From a virus: a stretch of 64,000 nucleotides of DNA. The notes below the pieces were generated by a model that was not told where the DNA came from, ran no database searches, and was given only the letters and a program-made list of their open reading frames with translations. The position numbers were made by a program, and so were the translations under genes. Below are positions 6,549 through 47,902 of this stretch, piece after piece; the first letter of the stretch is position 1, and every line of letters starts with the position of its first letter. The stretch lies in IMG/VR virus record IMGVR_UViG_3300022696_000071, positions 105,748-169,747 of that record; one strand, given 5' to 3'.

Positions 6549-7106
6549 TTAAGCTGGACTCCAGAAATAATCTCTTTGCAATTTTTCTTTATATATTGCA
6601 CCAAGAACTTTAAGATCTTTGAGATATCTTAAAGATTGTGATCTTGATATGCCAGACTTATTAGCAACATCACTCGATCTAATCCATTCTTCATCGACTA
6701 CAACTTTGAATATTCGATTTATGAATGAGTCTGCATTATTTAATCTCTCATTAACGATTTTTCTTAATTTGAACTCAAGACAATCTTCACAAAAATCGAT
6801 TGGTAAAACGTCATTGATCATTTTTTGAACTGTCAATTTCACTTGATTATCTTTTATATCAAACATTCCATTGATATCTTCAAGTCTCGTTATTTTTATT
6901 TTACCCAATCGAACTGTAAAAAATTTATCATTTCCACATACTTTGCAGACATCACGATCTAATTGATCAAGATTAACATTATCATGAGTTACTCTTATTC
7001 CTACTTTATCATTAAACAATACGAGTTCCATATACACTACTCCTTTCGTAATAAATAAAAATAAATATGTTGTCGGCATGGTCATATTCCTCCATAATAT
7101 GACCAT
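6549..7106 (-). CDS. hypothetical protein with a C-terminal HTH-like segment (possible regulator)
   Basis: C-terminus SGISRSQSLRYLKDLKVLGAI resembles a winged-helix HTH. Two candidate starts (7106 and about 7033), both with AGGAG-type RBS. Promoter motif at about 7136-7165 (minus). Confidence 0.4.
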   Translation of the reverse strand: MVILWRNMTMPTTYLFLFITKGVVYMELVLFNDKVGIRVTHDNVNLDQLDRDVCKVCGNDKFFTVRLGKIKITRLEDINGMFDIKDNQVKLTVQKMINDVLPIDFCEDCLEFKLRKIVNERLNNADSFINRIFKVVVDEEWIRSSDVANKSGISRSQSLRYLKDLKVLGAIYKEKLQRDYFWSPA

Positions 7107-7346: not shown

Positions 7347-7961
7347 CTATATTCCATCAACCAGCTTATTGCTGGTTTTCATCATTTTATTGCCCCATAG
7401 CATAGTGTTAGATATGATATGGGGCATATACTTTTCGTATAATGTACCCGTATCATATTCAATTTCTCTTATGCGGGTGCCTATGTAATACGATTGAGGA
7501 CCATCCTTCTTCCTCATAATCGTAATAAAATTAAAATTATAATCGGCAGCTTCCCGCCGATTTTGGAATTCCGACCAGTCGTGTTCGAAGATTACATCTT
7601 CGTTGCCTTCGAACAATTTAACCAACGAACCGGGTTTAACCGTTTCAATCATTACTGCAACGCAGTAATTTACTTGTCGTCCAATCTCGAAAATATAAAG
7701 AACATCTTTGAACATGCATACGTGTTTAAGATGTAGATTCTTTCTATCCCCGAATTCAATCCCAGTAATATCGTCTTTAATAACAAAAATGTTTTCTTTG
7801 CATGATCTCTCTCCCCATCCATGACCATGATAGAGTCTATGGTCATCTTTGTCTTGCGACAAAATGACGCCGGGAGTGTTTAAATCTTTCCTGGTTATCA
7901 TTTTAATATTATTGACGACAATAATCTCCCCATTTTTTACATTAATGATAATTTGGCTCAT
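7347..7961 (-). CDS. hypothetical protein (contains an HRLYHGHGW motif)
   Basis: 204 aa. RBS AAGGAGAATTAAAGATG. The His cluster suggests metal binding. Confidence 0.45.
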   Translation of the reverse strand: MSQIIINVKNGEIIVVNNIKMITRKDLNTPGVILSQDKDDHRLYHGHGWGERSCKENIFVIKDDITGIEFGDRKNLHLKHVCMFKDVLYIFEIGRQVNYCVAVMIETVKPGSLVKLFEGNEDVIFEHDWSEFQNRREAADYNFNFITIMRKKDGPQSYYIGTRIREIEYDTGTLYEKYMPHIISNTMLWGNKMMKTSNKLVDGI

Positions 7962-7989: not shown

Positions 7990-8045
7990 TAATGGTTAAA
8001 ATTTAATATATATAATCACAATATATATTAAATAATAACTAATTA
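7990..8045. promoter_or_regulatory. divergent pair of promoter-like motifs (minus: TGATTATATATATTAAATTTTAACCATTAAC; plus: ACAATATATATTAAATAATAACTAATTAACC)
   Basis: Sits between the divergent genes 7347..7961 (minus) and 8075..8359 (plus). Confidence 0.45.
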
Positions 8046-8074
8046 ACCACTTAAAATTAAAAGGAGATTTTATT

Positions 8075-8359
8075 ATGACAAAAAAAGAAAAACAAGAACT
8101 TATCATGAAGCTGAAAAATATTTTAGCTTTACTTGTAACAACAAGATCGGATGATATTACTGAAGATCAATTCAGTGATATCGTTCGAAAGATTGATGTA
8201 CTGGATAATATTTTTAAGAACATCATGACCAACACAGATGGTCATAGATGCGAATCGTGCTATCATCCAGTAAAAGTGGGAGAGATTATTCCCACGGTAG
8301 AGTATAATGGACTATTCCGTTATTACGGAAAATCAAAATGTATTTATTGCGAAAAATAA
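8075..8359 (+). CDS. small zinc-ribbon protein
   Basis: 94 aa. RBS AAAAGGAGA 8 nt upstream. C-terminal CxxC...CxxC. Promoter motif at about 8018-8045 and hairpin terminator at 8371-8427. Confidence 0.45.
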   Translation: MTKKEKQELIMKLKNILALLVTTRSDDITEDQFSDIVRKIDVLDNIFKNIMTNTDGHRCESCYHPVKVGEIIPTVEYNGLFRYYGKSKCIYCEK

Positions 8360-9233
8360 ATACATTATAAAAAAAAGAGAATGGGATATATTATACACAT
8401 ACGCATTTAATCTCATTCTCTTTTTTTAAGTTCACATACACACACAGAGAGAGAGAAGAGGGGGTAAGAAAAGAAGGACAAATAAGTAGAAATAGAAAGA
8501 AAGATTTGTATTCATGGGAATAAAGATCTCAAATAGAATTCAATAGAAGATGCCCATCTTTAATACATCACATTCTTTCTTTTTCAATTGATAGACCAAC
8601 TCACCTATCAAGTTGAATGACAGATAAGAGAACTATACGGGAACTGTACCATTCTCACAAAATTATCCATTCAACAAATCAATGAGCATAGTCATTTATT
8701 GGCTATTTGATACTTTATCTGTTATATTTATCAACCGATAAATTATCCGACAGAAATAAGCGTCACAATACTTTTAAACGTTTATTTTGCGTCAATATTT
8801 CTATATATGAGTTTATTCAATAATATCAACAACTTATCAATCTACAATTTTTAAATTACTTTTTTACACATCAAAGAAGTACATTTCACTGAAACCTTCC
8901 TTTTTCCCTTCCAAACCCATTTTCATCAATACACCCCATATTATAACCAAATCACCCATCTATCAATCCAATTTATACGATTTTTACATAGTGCAGATAA
9001 CCATTTTTCATCAATTTTTAATTGATTTCTATTTCATCAAAATCATCAAATTACTTCTATAATTACTATTCTACAATACAAAAAACTGAAATAATGGAAA
9101 TATACATTCATATCAATCTGGTTAAAAAATTAAGATTGATATATGTGATGATGTCTCTCAGAGAGAGAGAATAAGATTTATAAGTGTATTCAAAAAACAT
9201 ATGATCTCATTCTCTCTTTCTTTTTTTGTTTAT

Positions 9234-9280
9234 ATAAATAGTAGCATAATACTACTACTATTTATATATAAATCAATCTA
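9234..9280. repeat. near-perfect palindrome TTTATATAAATAGTAG-N-CTACTATTTATATA(TA)AA
   Basis: 14-16 bp arms read directly from the sequence. Lies in the ORF-free region. Confidence 0.55.
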
Positions 9281-9466
9281 TATATATTCAAAAAATTATA
9301 CCAAAAATTTTTCCACATCCAAATAATAGCTATTGAAAACTATATATCAGAAATAAATTCTCATGGAATATAAAATTAAAGAATCTGAATATAGATATAA
9401 TAATTATATTCAGATTTCTTTCAGATTTGGTATAAGTATATATATATGTCTCTATATTGATTCAAA

Positions 9467-9614
9467 AAAATTGATCTATTAATTTCAAAAAATGGTGTAT
9501 TTTCGTTTTCAGATAGGACAGGTATATATATATATTGATTCAAAAAAGTTGATCTATCAGATATCCATTGATTCAAAAAAGTTGATCTATTGATTTCAAA
9601 AAATGGTGTATTTT
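9467..9614. repeat. iteron-like direct repeats: TTGATTCAAAAAA(A/G)TTGATCTAT x3 and TGATTTCAAAAAATGGTGTATTTTC x2
   Basis: Copies at 9467-9490, 9535-9557 and 9568-9590, with the second repeat at 9481-9504 and 9590-9614. Inside a 1.9 kb ORF-free region. Confidence 0.6.
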
Positions 9615-9932
9615 CCCAACCAGGACTGGTCCTTAAAGGTACCCTCATAAGTCGCCAAGTAAATCGAAGCTTGAAGCAATGGTATATGATGTTCATGTTT
9701 CAAGTATGCCAATCATTGAAGACCCACCCAAACATCAAAGCTTCAAGTATTTTTTTCGAAAATTTGAGTATTTACCCACTCTATCAATATGTCCTGCTAT
9801 TACCCTATTTCCATCCAAATCGCTCTCATTTCGTTTCTATGGAGATTTATTTTAAATCTATAGTGAGATATTCATAAAAAAAGATCATCCAATGTTGACG
9901 AAATGAGATAGGAATAAATGGAAATGATGTGT

Positions 9933-9975
9933 CTACTGCCTTACGGCAGATTTAGAATTCCATATATATAGTGAA
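9933..9975 (-). repeat. conserved hairpin element copy A (TTCACTATATATAT-N10-ATCTGCCGTAAGGCAGTAG as read on the minus strand)
   Basis: One of four copies (A-D) of an approximately 45-nt element: promoter-like 5' half, 10-nt spacer and a CTGYC/GRCAG stem-loop. A lies in the ORF-free region. Confidence 0.5.
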
Positions 9976-10255
9976 TCATTCTCTATGTCATGGATAATCT
10001 TTTTCTTCTCCAATTACTTCGATTTGTGTTTTGTTAACGAAATCAGTGGAATTTTTATTATTTTTGTTATGTGGGGGGATTAATGGATACAGGTCATGTT
10101 ATGATGAATCAGGTCATTTTGGGGAGATTTTGATCAAAATCTATTCAATTTTCTCTATACGCTGATTAATGATTCCATAGTGAAAATTGAATAAAAAAAT
10201 TAGTTCGATTATTGTCGAATACTTTCTTTTTACTTCTCTGAATGATCTTTCTAAT

Positions 10256-10285
10256 TCACTATATATATATATTAATAGATAATCA
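10256..10285 (+). promoter_or_regulatory. promoter-like motif TTCACTATATATATATATTAATAGATAATC
   Basis: Upstream of 10316..10597. Confidence 0.45.
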
Positions 10286-10315
10286 TTAACCATTTTAATA
10301 AAAAAGGAGATAAGT

Positions 10316-10597
10316 ATGATTACATCAATGAAGGATTTAATGTTGTGGGGTCGATTTTTCATAGTTTCAATCACTGTCATTCTGGTGATTGAGATTGCAC
10401 GTATTGTGCACCCTACATTTCTGTGGGTGCATAAATACACGATAGTGGATTGGTTGCTTAATACCAATCCACTATTCCACCAGCGTCGTCGTAACCGGAT
10501 TATTAAAGGCTTTATCCGGGAGAGAACCATCATGCAGTATGATAGGTTCTCTCGATACGGGGTTATCCGCGTATTAATTCAGAATATACGCGGATGA
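10316..10597 (+). CDS. small membrane protein
   Basis: 93 aa. RBS AAAGGAGATAAG. Promoter motif at 10256-10285. Terminator at 10607-10646. Confidence 0.4.
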   Translation: MITSMKDLMLWGRFFIVSITVILVIEIARIVHPTFLWVHKYTIVDWLLNTNPLFHQRRRNRIIKGFIRERTIMQYDRFSRYGVIRVLIQNIRG

Positions 10598-11033: not shown

Positions 11034-13004
11034 CTATTTCGTCAAAAGATTATAAATATCGTTTTCATCTCCATCTCTGAACAAATCAAATGTATTATTC
11101 ATTCCACCCTTCATATTCCCCATATTGGCCCTTATATAAGAATCCACTTTCTTTTTAAATGTATTAAACTCATTATTCATATATTCATCCAATAATGGTG
11201 CACCAAACCCATTTAACCCACGTATCAGATCAGTTGCATCTTCAGTTGGTGAATTCATTTCATTATATGTGCTATCAAAATTATCAAATGAATCTAATAC
11301 ATCCTTCCTATAATGCCTCACATAACATATAAAGCCCAAAGCCATTGCTAAATCGTCATGCAATCCAACATCAGCCTGTATCTTATTCCCTTTATCAACT
11401 AACCCACTTAATTCTAACGCTAATCTTTCTGATTTAACAATAGATGGATCTTCTATTATGTATTGATATAGAGAATCGAGTATTAATGGTCTTGTTTTAA
11501 CATTAGTAGATAGTCCTGGATAGAATTTCTTATGTCCTGTTTGTCCTCTCCACTCTCCATACATATTATACTCATATGATTCATCTCGTAATATCTCTTC
11601 TATTACTTGATTGCCATAGCTGTTGTTTTCTATGATCAGGATGGAGCGTGGATACAGTTTAGCTATATATTTGACTACAGTAGTAAAATCAAATACTGCC
11701 ATTTTCCCTTTAAACTCAGCAATTTGTTTCATATCAACAAATCTAAACACTTCTATCGTACTCCAATCACCATCCCCCAATCCACTCCCCGTATCAACCC
11801 CAATTAATACTTTAGAATCTTTATCAGTATGAGTATATCTAATGAACTCACCACCCTGTTGCGTCCAGCCGCTCTCAAACCCTTCAGAATCGTTTTCAAT
11901 GTTAACCCCTATCTTACCCCTTATCCAGCGTCTTTCAAGCGGTCTGACGTGTCTGGTGGTTTCTTGCAGCACTACAATCACATCATCATCAAATAAATTA
12001 TTACCAGATCCAACAAACTTCATCTCAAGTTCTTGATTTATCTTACGTTTATTATTCTGTAAGATTGCACACTGTTGATCATACCACTTTGGATCATTCT
12101 TGAATATCGGAATTTCAGACCAATGAATCTTATATGGTCTGAATGCAGAGAGAATAGCATCACCACCATCATCCACATTGGTAGTCAATACTGCCGAATC
12201 GGTAGTCAATACTGCCGACTTAGACGATTTATCAGCTTCTTCATTTGTCCTTCCCTCCCCCTCCCCACTCTTATCCTTTTTCCCACCTATTACATTAGAA
12301 CTCTTAGATAAATTATTGTTACTATCCAACCACAGCTTGTAATACCACTTTCCTATTCCCTGCTGACCATTCGGAGTTGATAATACGATGGTTCCATAGG
12401 GAATTCCACGCTCTTTAGCCACTTGTTGGGCATATGATAGGGTTGAACCGAGTCCAGTCCACGCTTCATCGATTTTCATAATGTGTGCAGCTTCGTCAAT
12501 TACTAGTAATCCGATAGATTTTGACCGAAAAACCGATCCTGGGTTAGACAAACTTACTGCTGTGGAGTGAAGTTGGCACCCATTTGTGGTACTAAAACTC
12601 TGAACGGACTTGTGTTTATACTGTGGTTTCAGATAGTTAGGGAGTTTGTCTACTATGTCTTCCACCTTCTTGCAAAAATCCGAGGATTCGGCGCCTGATC
12701 TACTCAGTACCCCGCTTACCAGGTTAGAATTAAAGGTACTGATATAAGCAATTATAAGTTGGCACAATGTACTAAAGCCGGTTTGTCTTGATTTGAGTAA
12801 AATCAAGTGATGATATTTAAAAAATGCACGAATGATTTCTTTTTGTGGTTCATAGAGTTTGGGTAATGTATCTCCACCAGCTAATGGTAGATAACAGCAT
12901 TCTTCCATGAATTTAATTGGATTGTTTTTATATTCTAAATACTTAGTTGCATATTTTAATGCGCTTCTTGATAATTTTTCAGTATTATCTTGTTGTATTT
13001 CCAT
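11034..13004 (-). CDS. terL: terminase large subunit (TerL): ATPase plus nuclease
   Basis: Walker A-like KSRQTGFST. Walker B LLVIDEAAH. Nuclease-domain motifs IGVDTGSGLGDGDWS and GLHDDLAMALGF. 656 aa. Contains a low-complexity K/E/S-rich insertion with an in-frame 21-bp tandem duplication. Confidence 0.85.
   Translation of the reverse strand: MEIQQDNTEKLSRSALKYATKYLEYKNNPIKFMEECCYLPLAGGDTLPKLYEPQKEIIRAFFKYHHLILLKSRQTGFSTLCQLIIAYISTFNSNLVSGVLSRSGAESSDFCKKVEDIVDKLPNYLKPQYKHKSVQSFSTTNGCQLHSTAVSLSNPGSVFRSKSIGLLVIDEAAHIMKIDEAWTGLGSTLSYAQQVAKERGIPYGTIVLSTPNGQQGIGKWYYKLWLDSNNNLSKSSNVIGGKKDKSGEGEGRTNEEADKSSKSAVLTTDSAVLTTNVDDGGDAILSAFRPYKIHWSEIPIFKNDPKWYDQQCAILQNNKRKINQELEMKFVGSGNNLFDDDVIVVLQETTRHVRPLERRWIRGKIGVNIENDSEGFESGWTQQGGEFIRYTHTDKDSKVLIGVDTGSGLGDGDWSTIEVFRFVDMKQIAEFKGKMAVFDFTTVVKYIAKLYPRSILIIENNSYGNQVIEEILRDESYEYNMYGEWRGQTGHKKFYPGLSTNVKTRPLILDSLYQYIIEDPSIVKSERLALELSGLVDKGNKIQADVGLHDDLAMALGFICYVRHYRKDVLDSFDNFDSTYNEMNSPTEDATDLIRGLNGFGAPLLDEYMNNEFNTFKKKVDSYIRANMGNMKGGMNNTFDLFRDGDENDIYNLLTK
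12181..12222 (-). repeat. in-frame 21-bp tandem duplication inside terL (GGTAGTCAATACTGCCGAATC / GGTAGTCAATACTGCCGACTT)
   Basis: Encodes SAVLTTD-SAVLTTN within a low-complexity insertion of TerL. Confidence 0.6.
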
Positions 13005-14443: not shown

Positions 14444-14474
14444 TAATAACCATTTATAAAAAAGGAGAATTAAT

Positions 14475-15983: not shown

Positions 15984-16114
15984 TCGAACTCGTTCATAAT
16001 TAAAAAAGATGATTGATTAGAGTTATATATCACTCATCTTTTTTTATTTAATTCCATCATATATATTAATATATAACCATTAACCAGTTTAACCATATAT
16101 AAAGGAGGAATGGT

Positions 16115-17351: not shown

Positions 17352-17397
17352 TTTCACTATATATATAAAATTGTAATATCTGCCGTAGGCAGTAGAG
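17352..17397 (+). repeat. conserved hairpin element copy C (TTTCACTATATATATAAAATTGTAATATCTGCCGTAGGCAGTAGAG)
   Basis: Plus orientation. Immediately upstream of the promoter motif at 17410. Confidence 0.5.
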
Positions 17398-17409
17398 ACG
17401 TTTTTCAAA

Positions 17410-19978: not shown

Positions 19979-20064
19979 TATTTATTTAAAAATTGGCTAA
20001 ATAATAATCACATAGATTAGAATATCATTTTAATCTATGTGATTATTTGAAAGGAGATATGGTT

Positions 20065-21507
20065 ATGTGTGGAATAGGATGTGTTTGGTTCAGAGAAAGT
20101 GTTGATGTGGAAATTTTGGAAAAAATGCTGGAAGCAACTGAAAAAAGGGGAAAAGATGCATTTGGATATGCAATAATACGATATGATAAAACTGAAGATG
20201 ATTATGTTTTATTTGATATAAATCGATATGGTAAATCTTATAGTGAAATCAAACAAAATATCAATCTTTTTACAGTATTAAAAGTTGGAGATATAATTAT
20301 ATGGAATAATAGAGCAAAACCAATGACTGAATTTTCATCTGTAGATGGAGATGATAGAACAATTCAACCGATATGGTACAGAGATGAAGGGATCATTATG
20401 GTTCATAATGGTGTTGTATCGAATGAAGATGAAAAATTTAAAAGAAGAACAAAAATAGATTCTGAATTTTTCATTCATAGATATTTAAAAAATGGAAGAA
20501 ATATTAAAAAGACAGCAGAAGAAATGATTGGTGGATCTGCTTATATATACGTTGATCTAAGAAGAGATATACTTGGTGTTGTAAGAGATTTCAGACCATT
20601 GGGGAAAGCATATAAGAAGGGTGTTGGTTATTTTGTAATGACTGATACTGATGAATTCTATAATGTCTTTGGTGATATGGATGTGGCTATATGGGAAAAT
20701 TTCTATTATAGCAATATACAACAATTTACTACAAATGAGGTAGATTTAAATTCTGGTCTAATTAACAGAAAAGAATTTGAACCAAATTATATATCATCTC
20801 TTCCAGAACAAGATCCAAATAAAGTACTTGTAATGTCATCTGGTGGAGTTGATTCTTCTGTTGCTGCATGTGTTGCTGCAAAATTATTGAGAAAAGAAGT
20901 TACACTTGTTCACTTTGATATTAAACAAAAGAATAATCCAGGTGAAATTCGTGCAGTTAATTACTTAAGAGAATTTCTAAGATGTAGACTCGATTATGTT
21001 GATTTACGATGGCTTGGATCATATGGAAAAAGTGTATTAACAGATAATCAATTAAAAGTTCCAAGTGGGTCAGTTAAATCAAATTTGAAAAATACAGTAT
21101 GTTGGGTGCCAGCAAGAAATCTTATAATGTTATCATGTTTGATGGGTGTTGCTGAAGCTATAGGTGCAAGTGAAATATATAATGGTTTTACTCAAGAAGA
21201 AGGCACGGTTTACAATGACAATTCAACATCATTTTTCAATGCAATGAATTATGTGTCTGATTTTGGTACTCTTAAACGACCAAAAGTAAAAACCATTCTT
21301 GGGAATCTGATGAAGCCAGAAGTTATTAAACTTGGATGGTATTTTGGATTAGATTTCAGTCAATTGTGGTCATGCGATACATATAATGAAAAAACTGGTA
21401 AAGAATGCGGTGAATGTGGTGCGTGTACGCTTAAGGCTTTAGCGTTAGAACATGCTAAACAATTAGACAGACCACCAGAAGAAATAATAAATAGGTTGAA
21501 ATATTGA
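20065..21507 (+). CDS. Gat-QueC: class-II glutamine amidotransferase domain fused to a QueC-like PP-loop ATP pyrophosphatase (7-deazaguanine pathway)
   Basis: N-terminal MCGIGCVW (Ntn Cys nucleophile). SGGVDSSVAA PP-loop (SGGxDS). C-terminal CDTY...CGECGACTLK Zn motif typical of QueC. The track starts at TTG 20047. ATG at 20065 has better RBS spacing (AAGGAG at 20051-56). Confidence 0.75.
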   Translation: MCGIGCVWFRESVDVEILEKMLEATEKRGKDAFGYAIIRYDKTEDDYVLFDINRYGKSYSEIKQNINLFTVLKVGDIIIWNNRAKPMTEFSSVDGDDRTIQPIWYRDEGIIMVHNGVVSNEDEKFKRRTKIDSEFFIHRYLKNGRNIKKTAEEMIGGSAYIYVDLRRDILGVVRDFRPLGKAYKKGVGYFVMTDTDEFYNVFGDMDVAIWENFYYSNIQQFTTNEVDLNSGLINRKEFEPNYISSLPEQDPNKVLVMSSGGVDSSVAACVAAKLLRKEVTLVHFDIKQKNNPGEIRAVNYLREFLRCRLDYVDLRWLGSYGKSVLTDNQLKVPSGSVKSNLKNTVCWVPARNLIMLSCLMGVAEAIGASEIYNGFTQEEGTVYNDNSTSFFNAMNYVSDFGTLKRPKVKTILGNLMKPEVIKLGWYFGLDFSQLWSCDTYNEKTGKECGECGACTLKALALEHAKQLDRPPEEIINRLKY

Positions 21508-26060: not shown

Positions 26061-27107
26061 ATGAAAACAGAACACAGTCTATATTATGGTCATTCAAAAG
26101 AGTTACTTAAATCAACAGCTTCAGATTGTGTTGATTTAATAGTAACATCTCCACCATATCCCATGATTAAAATGTGGGATGATATATTTATAGATCAAGA
26201 ACCATTACTGAAACAATATTTAAATGATGGTTATGGTAAAGATGCATTTAATGCAATTCATAATAATATATTAACTCCAATATGGATTGAATCATATAGA
26301 GTTCTTAAAGAAGGTGGTATATTATGTATAAATATAGGAAATGCAGTAAGAACATTAAATAGTAATTTTAGAATGTATGATAATTGTTCAAGAATATCTA
26401 ATACTTTGAATAATATGCGACTATTAGTTCAATTACCATCTATAATATGGAGAAAACCAACAAATTCACCAAATAAATTCATGGGATCTGGAATGTTACC
26501 AGTTGGTGCATATATAACATTAGAGCATGAATTTGTATTGATATTTAGAAAAGGTGAGAAAAGAAAGTTTAATGGTGTAGAACAAGATATAAGACGAGAG
26601 AGTGCAATATTTTGGGAAGAAAGAAATAAATGGTTTTCAGATGTTTGGACTGATCTCCCTGGGATATCACAAGATTTAAACAATAAAGAAACAAGAAAAA
26701 GAAGTGGTGCATATCCACTTGATTTACCATATCGATTGATAAATATGTTTTCTATAAAAGGAGATACTGTTCTTGATCCATTTCTTGGAACTGGTACAAC
26801 TATGATTGCTGCTATGGCTTCAGAACGAAACAGTATTGGTTTAGAATTAGATAAAACTCTTGAACCAATAATAAATATTTATATGAATAATTTGAAAAAT
26901 ATAAGTGATCTAATTATAAAAGAAAGATTGTTAAATCATAAAGCATTTGAAACACGTATGTCTAATGATAATAAAGAACTTAAATATAATAATAGATATC
27001 ATGATACGCGAGTTGTATCAAAACATGAAAGATTTATTAAACTGAAGCATGTAAACAAAATAAATAAAAAAACACCAACTAAATTTGAAGTAACATATGG
27101 TAAGTGA
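26061..27107 (+). CDS. DNA methyltransferase, beta class (N4-cytosine or N6-adenine); apparently an orphan
   Basis: Motif IV LIVTSPPY precedes motif I DTVLDPFLGTGTT (beta-class order). An SPPY tetrapeptide is typical of N4mC methyltransferases. No nuclease partner is recognisable nearby. Confidence 0.7.
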   Translation: MKTEHSLYYGHSKELLKSTASDCVDLIVTSPPYPMIKMWDDIFIDQEPLLKQYLNDGYGKDAFNAIHNNILTPIWIESYRVLKEGGILCINIGNAVRTLNSNFRMYDNCSRISNTLNNMRLLVQLPSIIWRKPTNSPNKFMGSGMLPVGAYITLEHEFVLIFRKGEKRKFNGVEQDIRRESAIFWEERNKWFSDVWTDLPGISQDLNNKETRKRSGAYPLDLPYRLINMFSIKGDTVLDPFLGTGTTMIAAMASERNSIGLELDKTLEPIINIYMNNLKNISDLIIKERLLNHKAFETRMSNDNKELKYNNRYHDTRVVSKHERFIKLKHVNKINKKTPTKFEVTYGK

Positions 27108-41263: not shown

Positions 41264-44263
41264 TTAATTTTTTATTTTTAAACCAAGTATGTCTAAATAT
41301 GCTTCTAATAATTTCATACTTTGTGGTCTGTCATCAAATGAATCATCAGATAAGCTTGGATTATTTAATATATCTTTTGTTAATAATTTATTCTTTAATC
41401 CCGGCGAATCACTCTGAACAGTTAACAAATCTCTTAAGAAATTTGTTCCACCATGAGCCAATAAAGCCCACGTTTCCATCTCACCAAATCTATGACCACC
41501 ACTCCTTGATTTACCACCAAGTGGTTGAAGTGTCTTTTTACTATATGGTCCAATACTTCTTGCTGCCATTTTTTCAGATGATCGATGTATTAATTTAGTA
41601 AAGAATATATATCCAGATACGATAAATCTTTTTATATTCATTCCTGTTTCTGGATCAAATATTTCATATCTAAATTCCGAATCAACAATAAACATTAAAT
41701 TGAATAAATCATATATAGATATTGATTGGAATGGTGGTTGTATGAAATATAAGTTTTCTTCTGGATCATTGTTATTATTATAATTTTCTATAAATTCAGA
41801 TCTTATTTTATTTTTTATCCATTCATCATCTGTTTTATCAATTATATCAAGAACTTGATCCAAAAGTTCTAATTTATCATCTAAACCATCAATTTCTTTT
41901 AATTTCAATTTTAATTGATGAAGACATTCGCTCATGTGTAATTCATATAATTGACCAATATTCATTCTTGATATAATACCAAGTGGATTTATAATAATAT
42001 CTAAATTCCTTCCATCTGGTAATTTTGGCATTTTATTATCTGGAATTATTCTTGATATTATACCTTTGTTACCGTGTCTGTTTGCTACTTTATCACCTTC
42101 TCCTATTTGTTGTTCATATACTGCTTGCATTTTTACAAGTATCCCGCCAAATCGTTTTCCTTTGTGTGCATATTTCCCTTTTTGATTAACACAATCTAAT
42201 CGAGATAGCCCATTTTTAGTTACAAATGCATTCACATCATCTTTATTGTCCATAAATCTCTCAAGCCGACTATATAATTGAATATAATTATCAGTTTGAG
42301 TAATCATCATCCTTTCTATAAAATCATGAAATTCTTTTATTTGTTTATTCCAACTATTTGGATATATTTCAATATCGGTTATCGTACAATCAACTGGAGC
42401 AGTTGGTTCAAATGGTTCAATATTTATTGATTCAAAACCATCTTCATCGTCAATAGTTTTAACTCTTGCATAAATCTGACCCTTTTTAAGTTTATCACCA
42501 ACTGAAAATAGTGGCATATATTCTTCATCGATTAAACTTAGGAGGACTTGTCCAGGTTCTATGCTAAAAGTAAGATCAATACTATGTAATGAAGTGAATT
42601 TTTTTCTTGTTGATTCACTTATTACAATACCATCTTCATAGTTCCAACCTTTCCATATAGCTATACCTGTTAATAAATTATGACCAAGTTTCAATTCACC
42701 ATTATCAAGCGTTATAGATTCACATAAAATATCACCCTTTTTAAATTCTTCTCCAACTTTATAGTAACATTTTATGTAATCAACGGTGTTTTGATACATG
42801 TTTCTATAATTTATATTTATAACTTCTGATGTTTTATCAACATACATTGCAATTACAAATTTATTATTGGCATGAACAATAGCACCATCATTTTTTGCAA
42901 TATGGGTAAAAGTGGTATGCTCAATATTCATACTTTCTAAGCCACTTCGTATAAATGGTTTCTCAGAATCTTTTAATATTATTGATTGTTTCAATTGATT
43001 TGATGCCATTTGAAGTCGAATCTGGTCATCATTTTTAAGAAATGGAACAAGAGATATAGGGTAAGATGTTATAACTTCTTGATCTGGAGTTCCAAATATT
43101 CCATTTTCTCCAATATCTATTGTTGGAATCATATTTAATATAACACCACAACCTTCCCGGTCTGGTGTATCTGCTGGACATACATATCCAAACTGACTAT
43201 GATGAATATCTCTAAGATGGTTTGGAACATTTTCTTTCTTAAATCCACCTGGACCAGTTAGAGACAATTGACACATGGAAGCGATTTCTGTGACAGGATT
43301 TATTGGAAAGTTAAAATGAACAATACTACTCACATTACAACCATCCAATATAATATTTTTGTTTATCTTAAATTTCGTATTTTTTGGATCGTTGTTTATT
43401 GTTACAATCATATCATAAAATTTTTTGACCAATGGAAACAGTATATATTCTGATAATCTTATTCTTTTTCTTTTGAATGTTTTATCAGATTTAGAACCAT
43501 CGTATATTCCCTGCAACAATTCGAATAGTATTGATTCAGTTTTCATTAATTTTTTGCTGAATATATCTATTTCATATGCTGCTTTTAACGAAAATAAAAC
43601 ACTTTTCCCTTTTTTATATTTATCTATATTGGCAGAAGAGTATAATTTTCCTATATTTGTTGTTCTCTCCTTTTTGCTTATATCGTATAATTTTTTACAC
43701 TCTACTATAAGATTATTTACATATTGATTATTTGGTCTTCCAGCTATAAACTCTTCAATTTCTTCTTTTGTATGAAATGTTGAAAGAAGAAGAGCAAGAG
43801 ATATTTTTTTATTAAAAAGAGTTACTATATAATTCTCTCTATCTCTTATATTATTGAGATTAAGTTCTATATTTATCGTATTTGTTCTTAATTTCAATAA
43901 ACCATTTCGATATATAATTGGAAAATCGTATAATTGAAAGATTGGTATCTTCAGATATCCACCAATATAGAAAAAATGATTTTCTATGATATCAGGTATT
44001 TTAATATCATAATTAAGATCTTTTTTCTTTCGTGTATTTCCATTTTTTAAAGTAGCTCTAAGTATCGAATATATATTATATTTCAATTCTTCAAGACGCT
44101 TTGCATGAGAATTTATCCAATCACATTTCTCAAAAGTCCAGTTATTGATTAAAGATACATTTTCGAATATTTCAGTTATTAACCGTTTTATTCGATCTTT
44201 ATCCCACTCGATACTTCTTCTAAAAAATATATCATTCTTCTTGTATCTTTTATCCATAATCAT
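41264..44263 (-). CDS. rpoB: DNA-directed RNA polymerase beta subunit (C-terminal two-thirds; N-terminal lobes absent)
   Basis: GPGGFKKENVPNHLRDIHHSQFGYVCPADTPDREGCGVILNM. NRHGNKGIISRI. PDGRNLDIIINPLGIISRMNIGQ. GHRFGEMETWALLAHG. 999 aa. The conserved GPGG block sits at about residue 335 versus about 566 in E. coli beta. Confidence 0.85.
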   Translation of the reverse strand: MIMDKRYKKNDIFFRRSIEWDKDRIKRLITEIFENVSLINNWTFEKCDWINSHAKRLEELKYNIYSILRATLKNGNTRKKKDLNYDIKIPDIIENHFFYIGGYLKIPIFQLYDFPIIYRNGLLKLRTNTINIELNLNNIRDRENYIVTLFNKKISLALLLSTFHTKEEIEEFIAGRPNNQYVNNLIVECKKLYDISKKERTTNIGKLYSSANIDKYKKGKSVLFSLKAAYEIDIFSKKLMKTESILFELLQGIYDGSKSDKTFKRKRIRLSEYILFPLVKKFYDMIVTINNDPKNTKFKINKNIILDGCNVSSIVHFNFPINPVTEIASMCQLSLTGPGGFKKENVPNHLRDIHHSQFGYVCPADTPDREGCGVILNMIPTIDIGENGIFGTPDQEVITSYPISLVPFLKNDDQIRLQMASNQLKQSIILKDSEKPFIRSGLESMNIEHTTFTHIAKNDGAIVHANNKFVIAMYVDKTSEVININYRNMYQNTVDYIKCYYKVGEEFKKGDILCESITLDNGELKLGHNLLTGIAIWKGWNYEDGIVISESTRKKFTSLHSIDLTFSIEPGQVLLSLIDEEYMPLFSVGDKLKKGQIYARVKTIDDEDGFESINIEPFEPTAPVDCTITDIEIYPNSWNKQIKEFHDFIERMMITQTDNYIQLYSRLERFMDNKDDVNAFVTKNGLSRLDCVNQKGKYAHKGKRFGGILVKMQAVYEQQIGEGDKVANRHGNKGIISRIIPDNKMPKLPDGRNLDIIINPLGIISRMNIGQLYELHMSECLHQLKLKLKEIDGLDDKLELLDQVLDIIDKTDDEWIKNKIRSEFIENYNNNNDPEENLYFIQPPFQSISIYDLFNLMFIVDSEFRYEIFDPETGMNIKRFIVSGYIFFTKLIHRSSEKMAARSIGPYSKKTLQPLGGKSRSGGHRFGEMETWALLAHGGTNFLRDLLTVQSDSPGLKNKLLTKDILNNPSLSDDSFDDRPQSMKLLEAYLDILGLKIKN

Positions 44264-44539: not shown

Positions 44540-47500
44540 TTAATATTTAAATAATTCAGTCAGTGCTGATGAATTATCAGATCTATTATTTATAAGACCT
44601 TCCAACAATTTAGCTTTCAAATTAGCAAACATAGCTCCAAGTAACCATGATGTTCGTGATGGTATCTGAAGAATACTCACGAATTCATAATCAACATCAT
44701 TTCTGTTTGAAACTAATCTCCAAAGATCATTATCAACCCACATCATAGCAGATACAATTATTTCATAATGAACCATATGTATATTTTTATATTCTCCGAA
44801 TATACTATACATGAATTTGAGTAAATGTATTGGTTTACTTATATTCTCATCTCCATCTATTTGTTTTAATTTTGTTGGATTATGAAATAATTTATTTGCT
44901 ATATTAATACCACTAATAATATCTTCATTGTGAGAACCACCATCATCTGAATCTTCATCACTTACTCTATTTACAACACCGCTATTGTGAACAAATACAC
45001 CAGAAGATACTGGAAAATTATGATATTCATTATCAACTTCTAAATCATAAAATTCTTCTTCTTTATCTAATTCTATAAATTCTATATTATTAACTTTATG
45101 ATTGTATCCGCATGGGATGTCATGGTTTGGATCGGGGATAGGAGCATAATCATTATATAATTTATTTCTAAGATAATCTGGCGACCACTTGAGAAGATGT
45201 TCTCTATCATGTATTTTTCGACCATACATTTCTTTATTAATTTTATCAAATTGACTCAAACATAATCTAATATTGTTATCTTTCATATGTTGAAGTATTT
45301 TATCCATCATTGTTTCTGCAATACGTTGTTGTTTTGATCGATTATCTTCAACTCGATCATCAACAAGATGAGACAGAAAATCTGGAGAATGTTTAAGAAG
45401 ACCTTCTATCGTCTTCCTACTTAACGCTTTTGGATAAACAATTTCATTAGCTTTATCAAATGATGTATAAGTAAGAGGCATATCGAGTTCTTCCATCTTA
45501 GCAAGAACTTTTTTCATACGAGATTCACATTGAAGTTGTTGTCTCGATTTACCAGTTACTTTCCCTTTACTGTCACTACTCACTATTCGTCTTTCACCAC
45601 CAACTGGTTCGAGATGATTAAGATAATCTGGTGATAATTCTAACATCTTTTCTCTATGATGTGTTTTATCACCATATATTTCTCTATTTGATTTATCAAA
45701 ACTACCATATGTCATTGGAAGATTATTTTCTTCCATGTGTTTAAGAACTCTATCCATTCGTGATTCAGCATGAAGTTGTTGACGAGGTTTTTTAACTATA
45801 TCATCAATAAATCCAATCATTAAATCTTCATGATCTTTTATTGCATATTTATATGTTGGATATCTTAATCCAGCAGATTTAAAATATTTTTCTCGAATCA
45901 TATTAAAGTTCGTAGATGTTTTTTCTAACTTAAGATCAGATATTAATTTTAATATGTTTTCAATACATGTACGCCTTACTTTAATTGATATTTGTTTACT
46001 TTTTTCAGGATTATCAATGTGCCATTGTTTACGTGTTTCTGATGCTTTTATTCTTGCATCCTCTCCATGCATTTTTATATGTTCATCTGCATCTATTATT
46101 TGTATATTTGTAGGATAATCATTTTTAATATCATTATCGATATGATGTCTATGTATATTATTAGTTTTATTTATTTTCTCACAATCTGAGTGGTCTGATG
46201 ATAAATGGAATATTAAATCTCTCCTATAACCATTTGCTTTTGGTTCTTTATAATTTTGTTGAATTCTTCTTCTTCCCTCCATTCTACTACTAAGTGTACC
46301 ATATTCTAATAGATAACAAGGCATTAAAGAATCCCATTTCTTTAAATCTTTTGCTTTCTTATATGTACCATTACGCATCATCATTTCATGATCAGGTGTA
46401 ACTTTTATTATTTTCTTATTGTCTAAAGTTATTTTTACCATCTTATTCGTTATATGATCTTTAAACACATTCAATACTTTAGATACAACTATTTTTCCAT
46501 CTGGTGAACATGAAAAAGTATAAATATCTTCACTATTAATATTTATACGTTCATATAATTCATCCATTCGTATATGATTATTGTTTACATCTATTATACA
46601 AGTGTCGCGTGAAAGGCTTTCATGGAAGGTACGCAGTACAAGCTGCACGAGTCTCTCCCCGATTGAGTGAACAGCCATTATACCAATTTCATCGCTATGA
46701 AGTATTTTATGAAGATTACCATAACAAGTTTTACATATTTTTTCAGATTCACAATAAATTGGAGATCTTAGTTTTATATTTTTTCCAATTATATCATTTA
46801 TGTTCGAAGTTCTAATTGGAATAACATTACCATTATCATCCACATAATTTCTCCAGAGTAGAACTCTTGCCATCTTTTTATCTCGTACATATATCTCCAA
46901 ATAATCTTTAGTACAACAATCAATTTTATTGTGATCTATTTGATAATTAATACAACTGTATATTAATTGACGTGTTAAATATCCAGAATCACCAGTTGAT
47001 AATGCTGTATCCAATAATCCCTTTCTTGCACCATAACACGATTCAAAAAATTCTTTCTGATTCAACCCTTCCACCATACTACTTCGAATCAGATCTGGCC
47101 TAATATTTCCTTTTGAATCTGATACATAGCCCCTTGTGAATACAAGTTGCTTTGCTTGTTTCCATGAACCTCTCGCCCCCGACTTTATATACTGTGAGAA
47201 TGGTAAACTATCTAATAATTCATGTACTTCTTCTGAATTTTCGATAATATTCATATCATCTACAATATTACCAGTTAATTCTTTATTCTTCTTCAATAAT
47301 TCTTCTTTGAATATATCATCTAATCCAAGTGTATATCCTCGAATAGTTGACAATGAAAAACCAAGATTTTTAATTTTATCCAGTGTTTTTATAACTTTAG
47401 ATGGTGGATATGATAATACAATTTTATTTAATAAATTAAGTAATTTTCTCTTATCAATAACATCATCTATAATTGGATAATCTTCTGGTAAGCATTTATT

Positions 47501-47902
47501 AAATAATGCTCTCCCTCTTGATAATTGTACCCCTTTATATTCAACTAATTCAGTCAGCATATCATCAGTTGTTTCACCATTATTAATTTGAGTAGCACCA
47601 TATATTCCAAGAATAATGTCTTGATTGGGGCGAGGTACAAGAGTAATATCTGTTTGAGATAATAAATTATTCCATATTCCTATTCTTTCTTTCACATCAT
47701 TTTTTGATTCTTCTGTAATTGGAAAGTATAATGCCATACAATCTTGTACATATACACCATCGTGAGTTGAAAATGTAAAATAATCTTCAACAGTGAAATC
47801 ATATCCAATTGTTTTAGATGGATCTTTTTTAATAGAGATAGAAGAAACAGGAATTAAATTATATTTTTCTTCCAATTCTTTTTTTGATATTTTATTCGTC
47901 AT
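44540..47902 (-). CDS. rpoC: RNA polymerase beta' C-terminal part. Begins with a 54-aa C-intein fragment and contains a second, full-length intein.
   Basis: Residues 1-54 end with the intein block F/G-like GYDFTVEDYFTFSTHDGVYVQD. Residue 55 onward, CMALYFPIT, aligns with E. coli QMAVHVPLT, which follows NADFDGD. Beta' motifs present: GARKGLLDTALSTGDSGYLTRQL; LRTFH (trigger loop); GINIANKLFHNPTK; C-terminal SILQIPSRTSWLLGAMFANL. RBS AAGGAAAAAATTATAATG. Confidence 0.85.
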   Translation of the reverse strand: MTNKISKKELEEKYNLIPVSSISIKKDPSKTIGYDFTVEDYFTFSTHDGVYVQDCMALYFPITEESKNDVKERIGIWNNLLSQTDITLVPRPNQDIILGIYGATQINNGETTDDMLTELVEYKGVQLSRGRALFNKCLPEDYPIIDDVIDKRKLLNLLNKIVLSYPPSKVIKTLDKIKNLGFSLSTIRGYTLGLDDIFKEELLKKNKELTGNIVDDMNIIENSEEVHELLDSLPFSQYIKSGARGSWKQAKQLVFTRGYVSDSKGNIRPDLIRSSMVEGLNQKEFFESCYGARKGLLDTALSTGDSGYLTRQLIYSCINYQIDHNKIDCCTKDYLEIYVRDKKMARVLLWRNYVDDNGNVIPIRTSNINDIIGKNIKLRSPIYCESEKICKTCYGNLHKILHSDEIGIMAVHSIGERLVQLVLRTFHESLSRDTCIIDVNNNHIRMDELYERININSEDIYTFSCSPDGKIVVSKVLNVFKDHITNKMVKITLDNKKIIKVTPDHEMMMRNGTYKKAKDLKKWDSLMPCYLLEYGTLSSRMEGRRRIQQNYKEPKANGYRRDLIFHLSSDHSDCEKINKTNNIHRHHIDNDIKNDYPTNIQIIDADEHIKMHGEDARIKASETRKQWHIDNPEKSKQISIKVRRTCIENILKLISDLKLEKTSTNFNMIREKYFKSAGLRYPTYKYAIKDHEDLMIGFIDDIVKKPRQQLHAESRMDRVLKHMEENNLPMTYGSFDKSNREIYGDKTHHREKMLELSPDYLNHLEPVGGERRIVSSDSKGKVTGKSRQQLQCESRMKKVLAKMEELDMPLTYTSFDKANEIVYPKALSRKTIEGLLKHSPDFLSHLVDDRVEDNRSKQQRIAETMMDKILQHMKDNNIRLCLSQFDKINKEMYGRKIHDREHLLKWSPDYLRNKLYNDYAPIPDPNHDIPCGYNHKVNNIEFIELDKEEEFYDLEVDNEYHNFPVSSGVFVHNSGVVNRVSDEDSDDGGSHNEDIISGINIANKLFHNPTKLKQIDGDENISKPIHLLKFMYSIFGEYKNIHMVHYEIIVSAMMWVDNDLWRLVSNRNDVDYEFVSILQIPSRTSWLLGAMFANLKAKLLEGLINNRSDNSSALTELFKY
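44984..46600 (-). mobile_element. intein 2 (539 aa) inserted in the beta' trigger-loop region; carries an HNH endonuclease motif and three tandem ~55-aa DNA-binding-module-like repeats
   Basis: Starts at Cys (RDT|CIIDVNN). Block B-like VTPDHEMM. HNH-like HRHHIDNDIKNDYPTNIQIIDADEHIKMHGE. Ends EYHNFPVSSGVFVHN|S. Three repeats: HAESRMDRVLKHMEENNLPMTYGSFDK / QCESRMKKVLAKMEELDMPLTYTSFDK / RIAETMMDKILQHMKDNNIRLCLSQFDK. Codon boundaries checked against the DNA. Confidence 0.7.
47741..47902 (-). mobile_element. C-terminal fragment of split intein 1 (54 aa), fused in frame to the beta' C-extein
   Basis: MTNKISKKELEEKYNLIPVSSISIKKDPSKTIGYDFTVEDYFTFSTHDGVYVQD followed by C+1. The terminal residue is Asp rather than Asn. 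Confidence 0.6.

Follow-up and report, generated by a model that had tools for sequence, protein, structure and literature searches.

An uncultured jumbo phage, represented here by a window of 64,000 nucleotides (nt; positions 105,748 to 169,747 of the IMG/VR virus record IMGVR_UViG_3300022696_000071), carries at positions 8360-10315 of that window a 1956-bp region in which no open reading frame (ORF) is preceded by a Shine-Dalgarno sequence. The region may be made up of copies, devoid of ORFs, of the cassette that the phage uses for transcription (terminator, promoter, and leader), from which non-coding RNA would be produced. This reading is held tentatively, at somewhat less than even confidence, and is favoured because of a direct sequence analogy with many sites of the same genome; a non-coding transcription hub of this kind would most likely insulate or regulate the early genes on both sides. 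The transcription signals of the region comprise two standard terminators, three promoter-like cassettes, one member of a dispersed promoter-plus-hairpin family, and a canonical promoter at the right edge. The preliminary description of this DNA, which had suggested a replication origin of the iteron type or a regulatory hub, is partly supported: the density of these signals supports a regulatory or non-coding hub, while an iteron-type origin is not supported in the form in which it was proposed.

Coding potential and promoter signals

No longer stretch of the window lacks a Shine-Dalgarno-preceded ORF, and the region is the sole large ORF-free gap in 64 kb; the window is otherwise densely coded, the remaining gaps in the ORF list being a product of the ORF filter. 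The longest frames (95, 91, and 58 amino acids) all lack a Shine-Dalgarno sequence, and the codon-usage scores of the longest ORFs range from -0.12 to -0.43, compared to +0.37 +/- 0.13 for genes of the phage. Reassignment of TGA, TAG, or TAA opened no long frame in the region. A phmmer search of the 95-amino acid ORF against 1.8 billion representatives returned no credible homologue, the weak matches being of ~25 residues to long proteins, in several stretches each, and tblastx of the region against the rest of the window detected neither a paralogue nor a trace of a pseudogene. The alternative codes, the codon-usage scan, the phmmer search of the 95-amino acid ORF, and tblastx thus gave no sign of a hidden gene. 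The earlier claim that no credible ORF is present is thereby confirmed, and the peptide repeats of the type FEINRSTFLNQ that accompanied it are indeed encoded, by a 91-amino acid minus-strand ORF at 9421-9696. The further claim that the region is AT-rich holds for 9200-9550 (GC 0.17-0.22) and not for the region as a whole (GC 0.27-0.29, versus ~0.29 for the genome). At the nucleotide level, blastn against the rest of the window found matches for the canonical promoter and for the hairpin-bearing element A (see below) and for no other part of the region.

The promoter consensus of the phage was built by aligning (TA)n runs, which mark intergenic regions throughout the window, and reads TATATATATTAAAT(A/T)ATAAC. 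About 24 strong sites scored 20-35 bits, each a short way ahead of a gene that has a strong Shine-Dalgarno sequence; they include 3003(-), 7156(-), 8010(-), 8024(+), 10268(+), 13541(+), 14428(+), 16619(+), 17419(+), 17759(+), 21557(+), 22705(+), 22986(+), 28040(-), 30625(-), 35682(-), 44529(-), and 61849(-). Such sites cluster ahead of small genes, and few occur at 30.7-64 kb, where the genes are large. The promoter core ATATATATTAAAT is also intergenic in all five relatives that were fetched, with which identity of the terminase TerL is only 42-48%. Sigma-70 promoters were rejected, matches to them being fewer than in shuffled sequence (14 versus 23). The experimentally mapped early promoter of phage AR9, which is recognized by the virion RNA polymerase, has the form AAATATATATTAT-N6-G(+1), and a single deviation from this consensus can abolish its activity (PMC5312081). 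The consensus of AR9/phiKZ-type early promoters is matched in every highly conserved position at the sites that flank the region, namely the canonical promoters at 8010(-) and 8024(+), which stand back to back (8003-8031) and serve genes 7347-7961 and 8075-8359, and the promoter at 10268(+). As in phages of the AR9/phiKZ type, an extended conserved AT-rich box precedes many small early genes and split beta and beta' subunits are encoded; unlike those phages, the window encodes a TerL that is unrelated to that of any cultured phage (26% identity).

A conserved leader motif, TAACCATT(T)TAA, was also observed between promoter and Shine-Dalgarno sequence in many early leaders, for example at 7140-7110(-), 8040-8060(+), 10283-10300(+), 14445-14460(+), and 16075-16100(+). 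ORF-less copies of the form AACC(C)ATTTT occur inside the region at 8914 and 8999.

Terminators, cassettes, and the element A family

The features of the region are as follows, from left to right, with fold energies and z-scores where these apply.

8370-8427, both strands: T1, a bidirectional intrinsic terminator (predicted) with A7, an 18-bp stem, a 22-nt loop, and T7 (-19.3 kcal/mol, z -7.4)
8437-8526, plus strand: (CA)5(GA)6 and a polypurine tract, with a purine content (79%) that no other 90-nt stretch of the window reaches
8584-8795, no strand assigned: four clustered inverted repeats, two of them on ATCAAT/ATTGAT boxes (plus-strand fold -55.1 kcal/mol, z -4.6)
8826-9075, no strand assigned: G-depleted tract with 8 G versus 59 C on the plus strand, the minus strand being G-rich
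9160-9228, plus strand only: T2, an intrinsic terminator (predicted) that ends in T7 (-22.5 kcal/mol, z -3.05)
9231-9268, no strand assigned: perfect 14-bp palindrome, TATATAAATAGTAG-N10-CTACTATTTATATA, with arms that resemble degenerate promoter boxes
9255-9330, plus strand: M0, a degenerate cassette copy identified by sequence comparison, with a (TA)n box followed by ATTCAAAAAA
9382-9416, no strand assigned: 17-bp AT-rich palindrome, AATCTGAATATAGATAT / ATAATTATATTCAGATT (z -3.3)
9419-9506, plus strand: M1 cassette, identified by repeat analysis, with TTTCAGAT-N8-(TA)5.5, a 23-mer, and a 25-mer
9507-9617, plus strand: M2 cassette, as M1 with a 33-nt insert that bears an additional 23-mer (RNA fold z ~+2, unstructured)
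9665-9762, plus strand: segment of higher GC content (0.39-0.40) in which an 8-9 bp long-range stem, CTTGAAGC/GCTTCAAG, precedes T7 (z -2.5)
9807-9925, no strand assigned: imperfect long hairpin that encloses a second one and whose 28-nt arms are 75% complementary (z ~-4.1 to -4.4)
9925-9975, minus strand: element A, one of four copies, a promoter-like box CACTATATATAT (11.4 bits), 12 nt, then CUGCC-GUAA-GGCAG-UAGA
10142-10193, no strand assigned: 17-bp inverted repeat, TATTCAATTTTCTCTAT / ATAGTGAAAATTGAATA, from inverted-repeat and fold scans
10255-10287, plus strand: canonical promoter (site 10268, 20.6 bits) that serves gene 10316-10597 and marks where the region ends on the right

Terminators of this phage typically consist of an A-run, a GAGA-rich stem, and a T-run, and are often bidirectional and often long-looped. 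T1 lies directly 3' of gene 8075-8359 and has the AAAAAGAGA...TCTCTTTTT style of the phage's other terminators. A stable stem-loop followed by a U-run is formed by T1 in either orientation and by T2 on the plus strand, and both are predicted to act as intrinsic terminators; their loops of 22-26 nt are long, but the same is true of other terminators of the phage. The (CA)n(GA)n tracts that had been noted as low-complexity sequence are present at 8436-8462 and 9156-9171, and the (GA)n part of the second one forms the 5' arm of T2. The terminator scan detected no minus-strand terminator between 9950 and T1. The segment at 9665-9762 is a weak terminator-like site, which a stricter terminator scan did not pick up.

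The direct repeats that had been interpreted as iterons exist, although their coordinates are corrected from 9467-9614 to 9457-9615. A 23-mer, TTGATTCAAAAAARTTGATCTAT, occurs at 9457, 9535, and 9568 (spacings of 78 and 33), a 25-mer at 9480 (TAATTT..., one mismatch) and 9591 (spacing of 111), and a 49-nt unit at 9456-9504 and 9567-9615 with 96% identity. The longest exact repeat in the region is 24 nt, whereas 300 dinucleotide shuffles gave 11.7 on average and 16 at most. These supposed iterons are a tandem duplication of one cassette of ~90-110 bp, present as M1 and M2, which are 96-100% identical, and as the degenerate M0. Promoter cassettes in other parts of the early region are also commonly duplicated, as exemplified by exact repeats of 33 nt and 27 nt at 13.5/14.4 kb and 16.6/17.4 kb. 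The palindrome reported earlier also exists, with 14-nt arms at 9231-9244 and 9255-9268 that are 100% complementary; it looks like two degenerate boxes back to back, similar to the canonical pair at 8003-8031. A minus-strand promoter-like box anchored at 9280, within M0, scored 8.1 bits.

Element A is the strongest candidate for a start signal within the region. Its hairpin, CTGCCTTACGGCAG, lies at 9936-9949, close to where the preliminary description had placed a hairpin copy (9933). The four copies, A to D, are at 9975-9925(-), 17352-17400(+), 30250-30300(+), and 54229-54275(+), and share a layout of a promoter-like box (9-15 bits), 12-13 nt, a 5-bp stem CUGYC/GRCAG, a loop, and UAGA. The loops are GUAA, GUA, GGAA, and GCAA, that is, of the GNRA type in three of four copies and GUA in the fourth. 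Pairing is complete in the family stem (20 of 20 cells), with one compensatory change from C-G to U-A, the statistics being weak with four copies. A hairpin of this type has not been described for AR9. It was also observed that copy D is antisense to the flanking minus-strand genes and that copy C runs into a convergent gene at its 3' end.

The repeat hairpin of type I-F CRISPR systems, the substrate of Csy4 (Cas6f), has the loop GUAUA in GTTCACTGCCGTATAGGCAGCTAAGAAA (PMC4604432). A solitary repeat unit that mimics a CRISPR repeat would be expected to resemble a repeat of the host over its whole length, handle included. Copies A and B match the stem of the I-F hairpin, CUGCC/GGCAG, exactly and its loop almost exactly (GUAA or GUA) and, like the solitary repeat units that serve as RNA anti-CRISPRs, each family copy has its own promoter-like box. 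In contrast to the Csy4/I-F hairpin, the flanks differ and copies C and D have the compensated stem CUGUC/GACAG; moreover, a comparison of the hairpin copies with the CRISPR-DR families of Rfam gave no match. That the four elements could be small RNAs mimicking the Cas6f-type repeat hairpin is offered as a lead only, and is considered less likely than the R-loop origin discussed below.

If the region functions as a non-coding transcription hub, a leftward RNA would start near 9955, and possibly near 9270, and would meet no minus-strand terminator before T1 (~8372). Such an RNA would be up to ~1.5 kb long and strongly G-rich over 9075-8826. A rightward RNA, if the M boxes fire, would start near 9467 or 9545 and would end at the weak site at 9747-9762 or continue as a long leader of gene 10316-10597. 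The presence of T2 implies some plus-strand transcription across 8430-9160. Antisense control, a sponge, or a primer are candidate roles for these RNAs.

Several observations weigh against a transcription hub. The M boxes scored from -0.4 to 5.1 bits, versus 20-35 bits for real sites, with a 99.9th percentile of the background at 2.2. Their (TA)n boxes copy only the upstream half of the promoter; the conserved TTAAAT...TAAC half is absent, and M0-M2 depart from the AR9/phiKZ-type early-promoter consensus in that TTAAAT is replaced by TTGATT or TTCAAA. Given these low matrix scores and the intolerance of AR9 to a single deviation, the M boxes may not be promoters. No promoter is recognizable for the 8430-9160 unit that T2 would end, no Rfam family matches the region, and fold z-scores are unremarkable outside the hairpins. 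The phased A-tracts and the composition extremes described in the next section are apparent DNA-level properties that a transcription hub neither needs nor explains. Additionally, none of the collections searched yielded a relative close enough for a comparison of conservation.

A mosaic of degenerate signals would also be produced if the region were made up of decayed early-gene cassettes, that is, remnants of promoters, leaders, and terminators that lost their small ORFs and have no present function. The box at 8795, the leader-like motifs AACCATTTT at 8914 and 8999, T2 followed by GTTTATATAAATAG, and M0 would all be expected of such a history, the neighbouring early ORFans are likely to have a fast turnover, and no part of the region is conserved in any database searched. 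Neutral decay, however, is not expected to produce extremes of skew, purine content, and A-tracts, nor does it readily account for the 96-100% identity of M1 and M2 or for the intact T1 and T2. No coding or paralogue trace is left, and the phage appears otherwise intolerant of idle DNA, since the rest of the window is densely coded. Decay of this kind is accordingly judged improbable.

DNA-level properties and origin models

The composition and physical properties of the region were compared with those of the whole window. No other 250-nt stretch of the window has a GC skew as negative as that of 8826-9075 (-0.76) or contains so few G. Inverted 20-nt arms at 8835-8854 and 9122-9141 bracket this G-depleted tract, which holds ATCAAT boxes and a 17-nt repeat, AACC(C)ATTTT(T)CATCAAT, at 8914 and 8999. 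ATCAAT boxes are enriched in the region (16 observed versus ~4 expected), mostly pointing rightward to the left of 9272 and leftward within M1 and M2; compared by eye with the IHF site WATCAANNNNTTR, they did not fit. Eight tracts of at least five A on one strand at 9190-9605, across M0-M2, are phased at 11.0 bp with R = 0.85, the top value of the window, which a coding stretch at 29.1-29.5 kb comes close to. The core ATT(T)CAAAAAA occurs in 5-7 copies on one strand with spacings of 23, 55, 33, and 23 bp, near multiples of 11. Duplex instability at 9193-9493 is at the 99.4th percentile (300-bp window), with 13.0-13.8 kb and several promoter regions being less stable. Across the repeats, the RNA fold is weaker than that of shuffled controls (z ~+2), which fits either a site that acts at the level of the duplex or a single-stranded RNA. 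Hairpins are dense at 8584-8795, 9382-9416, 9807-9925, and 10142-10193. A strand call from the fold z-scores at 8540-8810 was dropped, as both strands have nearly equal energy; the difference in z at 8584-8795 (plus -4.6, minus -1.4) arises because the base composition of the strands differs. GC skew was likewise rejected as an origin marker because it follows the gene strand, with the cumulative-skew minimum at ~13 kb. It should be noted that a 16-codon micro-ORF (MDTGHVMMNQVILGRF) lies at 10083-10133(+) after a GGGGGG tract and overlaps the repeat CAGGTCAT at 10090 and 10110.

Iteron origins usually have 3-7 direct initiator-binding repeats of ~17-22 bp, helically phased, with an adjoining Rep/O-type gene and an AT-rich unwinding element, as in lambda ori, plasmid Rep/iteron origins, and SPP1 oriL. 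The region resembles these in that its direct repeats are roughly helically phased and lie beside AT-rich DNA and palindromes. It differs in having only 2-3 full copies, which arose by duplication of a cassette, in the lack of a recognizable cognate initiator gene nearby, and in the lack of DnaA boxes (TTATCCA[CT]A was absent from the region on either strand). Further, the DNA is not the least stable of the window, GC skew gives no signal apart from gene orientation, and several features that appeared origin-like are arms of terminators or members of a dispersed family. An iteron-type origin as originally described is therefore not supported.

Origins activated by transcription follow a different layout, as exemplified by the primary origin of T7 (phi1.1A/B and an AT-rich stretch), oriF and oriG of T4 (a promoter and an unwinding element), and RNA II of ColE1. 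The origin of the lactococcal phage c2, likewise, is associated with a non-coding early transcript. Origins of this type require that a promoter active with the RNA polymerase of the replicating phage lie immediately upstream of an unwinding element, and that the transcript form a lasting RNA-DNA hybrid or be processed into a primer. As in these systems, the tandem promoter-like boxes of the region adjoin easily melted AT-rich DNA, ORF-less units lie between terminators, and a G-rich RNA segment would favour a persistent hybrid; unlike in these systems, the predicted boxes are off consensus and no primase or RNase H site is recognizable. In a mechanism of this type, the phased A-tract repeats would bend the DNA and might serve as binding sites for a protein of the phage, the (TA)n boxes would melt, and a leftward RNA would prime replication from a stable hybrid of G-rich RNA with C-rich DNA at 9075-8826, where the minus-strand RNA would have 59 G versus 8 C, a predisposition of the sequence to an RNA-DNA hybrid. 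The copies of ATT(T)CAAAAAA together with the A-tract phasing, the instability at 9193-9493, the palindromes, and the extreme G/C asymmetry between the minus-strand promoter-like boxes and T1 are all in line with such a mechanism, as are the location of the region in a zone where gene orientation diverges and the weak RNA folding of the repeats, which a duplex-level site would give.

Set against these points, the promoter-like boxes are off consensus (M boxes -0.4 to 5.1 bits, element A 11.4 bits), the 2-3 full repeats are accounted for by duplication, DnaA boxes are lacking, the DNA at 13.0-13.8 kb has an even lower duplex stability, the coding stretch at 29.1-29.5 kb is similarly phased, and the cumulative-skew minimum at ~13 kb follows gene strand. 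Additionally, no Rep, O, or initiator-like domain was recognized in the flanking ORFan genes: Pfam and PHROG searches of genes 6549-7106, 7347-7961, 8075-8359, and 10316-10597 gave no match, an initiator of an unrecognizable type being possible, and a search for homologues of the 204-amino acid neighbour of the region returned none. A transcription-activated origin overlaps mechanistically with the transcription hub and the case for it is wholly circumstantial; it is regarded as doubtful. The specific form in which the region would be the origin of a jumbo phage that uses its own multisubunit RNA polymerase, with a leftward non-coding hairpin-promoter transcript forming a G-rich R-loop at 9075-8826, beside bent and (TA)n-rich DNA, that primes replication, is considered rather unlikely.

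Relatives, neighbouring genes, and implications

Searches for related loci provided little to compare with the region. A blastn search of the region against 50,697 phage records gave no match, exact region motifs were absent from IMG/VR, and TerL-based locus searches of IMG/VR and JGI metagenomes identified no close relative. A 20-mer of the promoter had 29 single matches in GTDB genomes, all attributable to chance. In terms of TerL, the best relatives reach 48% identity and lack synteny. Two distant relatives, L001 (13480-14468) and L036 (9110-9700), have ORF-poor stretches 1.5-2.6 kb downstream of TerL that have no sequence in common with the region, while the relatives L002, L035, and L037 have no such gap beside TerL. 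The stretch in L001 has G-rich direct repeats (GGGTGGGATT / GGGCGGGATT)..TGGCGG, a G-quadruplex-type motif, and a 23-nt exact repeat; that in L036 has TTTTTnnAAAAAnnTTTTTG boxes ~45 nt upstream of two promoter cores.

The proximity of TerL (11034-13004(-), 656 amino acids), which ends 0.8 kb to the right of the region, raises the prospect of a DNA-handling site, which could be an injection-stop site like that of T5, the border of a terminal repeat, or a signal for packaging beside the terminase gene. The T5 injection-stop region has pairs of DnaA boxes in conserved inverted repeats and lies at the inner edge of the long terminal repeat, beside the A1, A2, and dmp genes. The region here is likewise non-coding, repeat-bearing, and of similar size (1.96 kb, versus 1.7 kb in T5). 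Its anatomy is very similar to that of the 1662-bp T5 region (10.1101/866236), it lies beside small early-type genes, and the ORF-poor, repeat-bearing stretches of L001 and L036 are also within 3 kb downstream of TerL. Nevertheless, paired DnaA boxes are absent, no A1-, A2-, or dmp-like genes are recognizable, three relatives lack a gap beside TerL, and the stretches in the other two share no sequence with the region. A role in DNA handling is consequently deemed highly improbable.

The nearest matches to TerL among cultured phages are T4-like, at only 26% identity, and identity to metagenomic relatives is 48% at most. At 656 amino acids it is longer than the ~560-580 amino acids of its relatives, several of which align over only 33-55% (best local segment). 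The extra length and the partial alignments suggest a possible insertion in the window's copy. Exact-protein look-up placed TerL and the proteins of both flanking genes each in a singleton cluster present on two contigs, the longer being a JGI contig of 201 kb that encodes an identical TerL. The genes that flank the region are ORFans. Gene 10316-10597(+) has a promoter and a Shine-Dalgarno sequence, and yet its exact protein is missing from a collection of 15 billion proteins in which those of its neighbours are present; it was probably missed or called differently by the source annotation. A 130-amino acid minus-strand ORF at 10141-10533, which overlaps this gene, is likely a miscall.

The window has an overall GC content of ~29%, with GC skew that tracks gene strand. 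Its multisubunit RNA polymerase genes are split (beta' N-terminal, 44540-47902(-); beta' C-terminal, 49019-50617(-); beta, 41264-44263(-)), and the beta' C-terminal gene contains an intein splicing domain and an HNH-like segment. An XPD-like helicase is also encoded. Further, a glutamine amidotransferase fused to a QueC-like domain (20047-21507(+)) and an N6/N4 DNA methylase (26061-27107(+)) suggest that the DNA may carry modifications of the 7-deazaguanine type and methylation. An 864-amino acid protein (30686-33280(-)) has a Pfam major vault protein shoulder domain (E 2.5e-10), which is unusual for a phage. ARAGORN detected no tRNA or tmRNA genes in the window, and no Rfam 15 family reached its gathering score there, the matches at E <= 10 being at the level of chance.

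To the best of the authors' knowledge, AR9/phiKZ-like phages are without a defined origin, and the origins and non-coding RNAs of jumbo phages with their own multisubunit RNA polymerases are essentially unmapped. Apart from the region, the analysis provides the consensus of a promoter very similar to the early promoter of AR9, for a clade of jumbo phages that is new and uncultured, together with a promoter-plus-GNRA-hairpin family whose members are dispersed. Should the region be made up merely of ORF-less cassettes, it would be an ordinary feature of a fast-evolving early region. If an R-loop origin were to prove true, it would be the first origin for AR9/phiKZ-like phages. The locus is compact and well delimited, with explicit predicted 5' and 3' ends of its RNAs, a repeat array that is predicted to be bent, and an R-loop-prone tract, and is hence directly testable.

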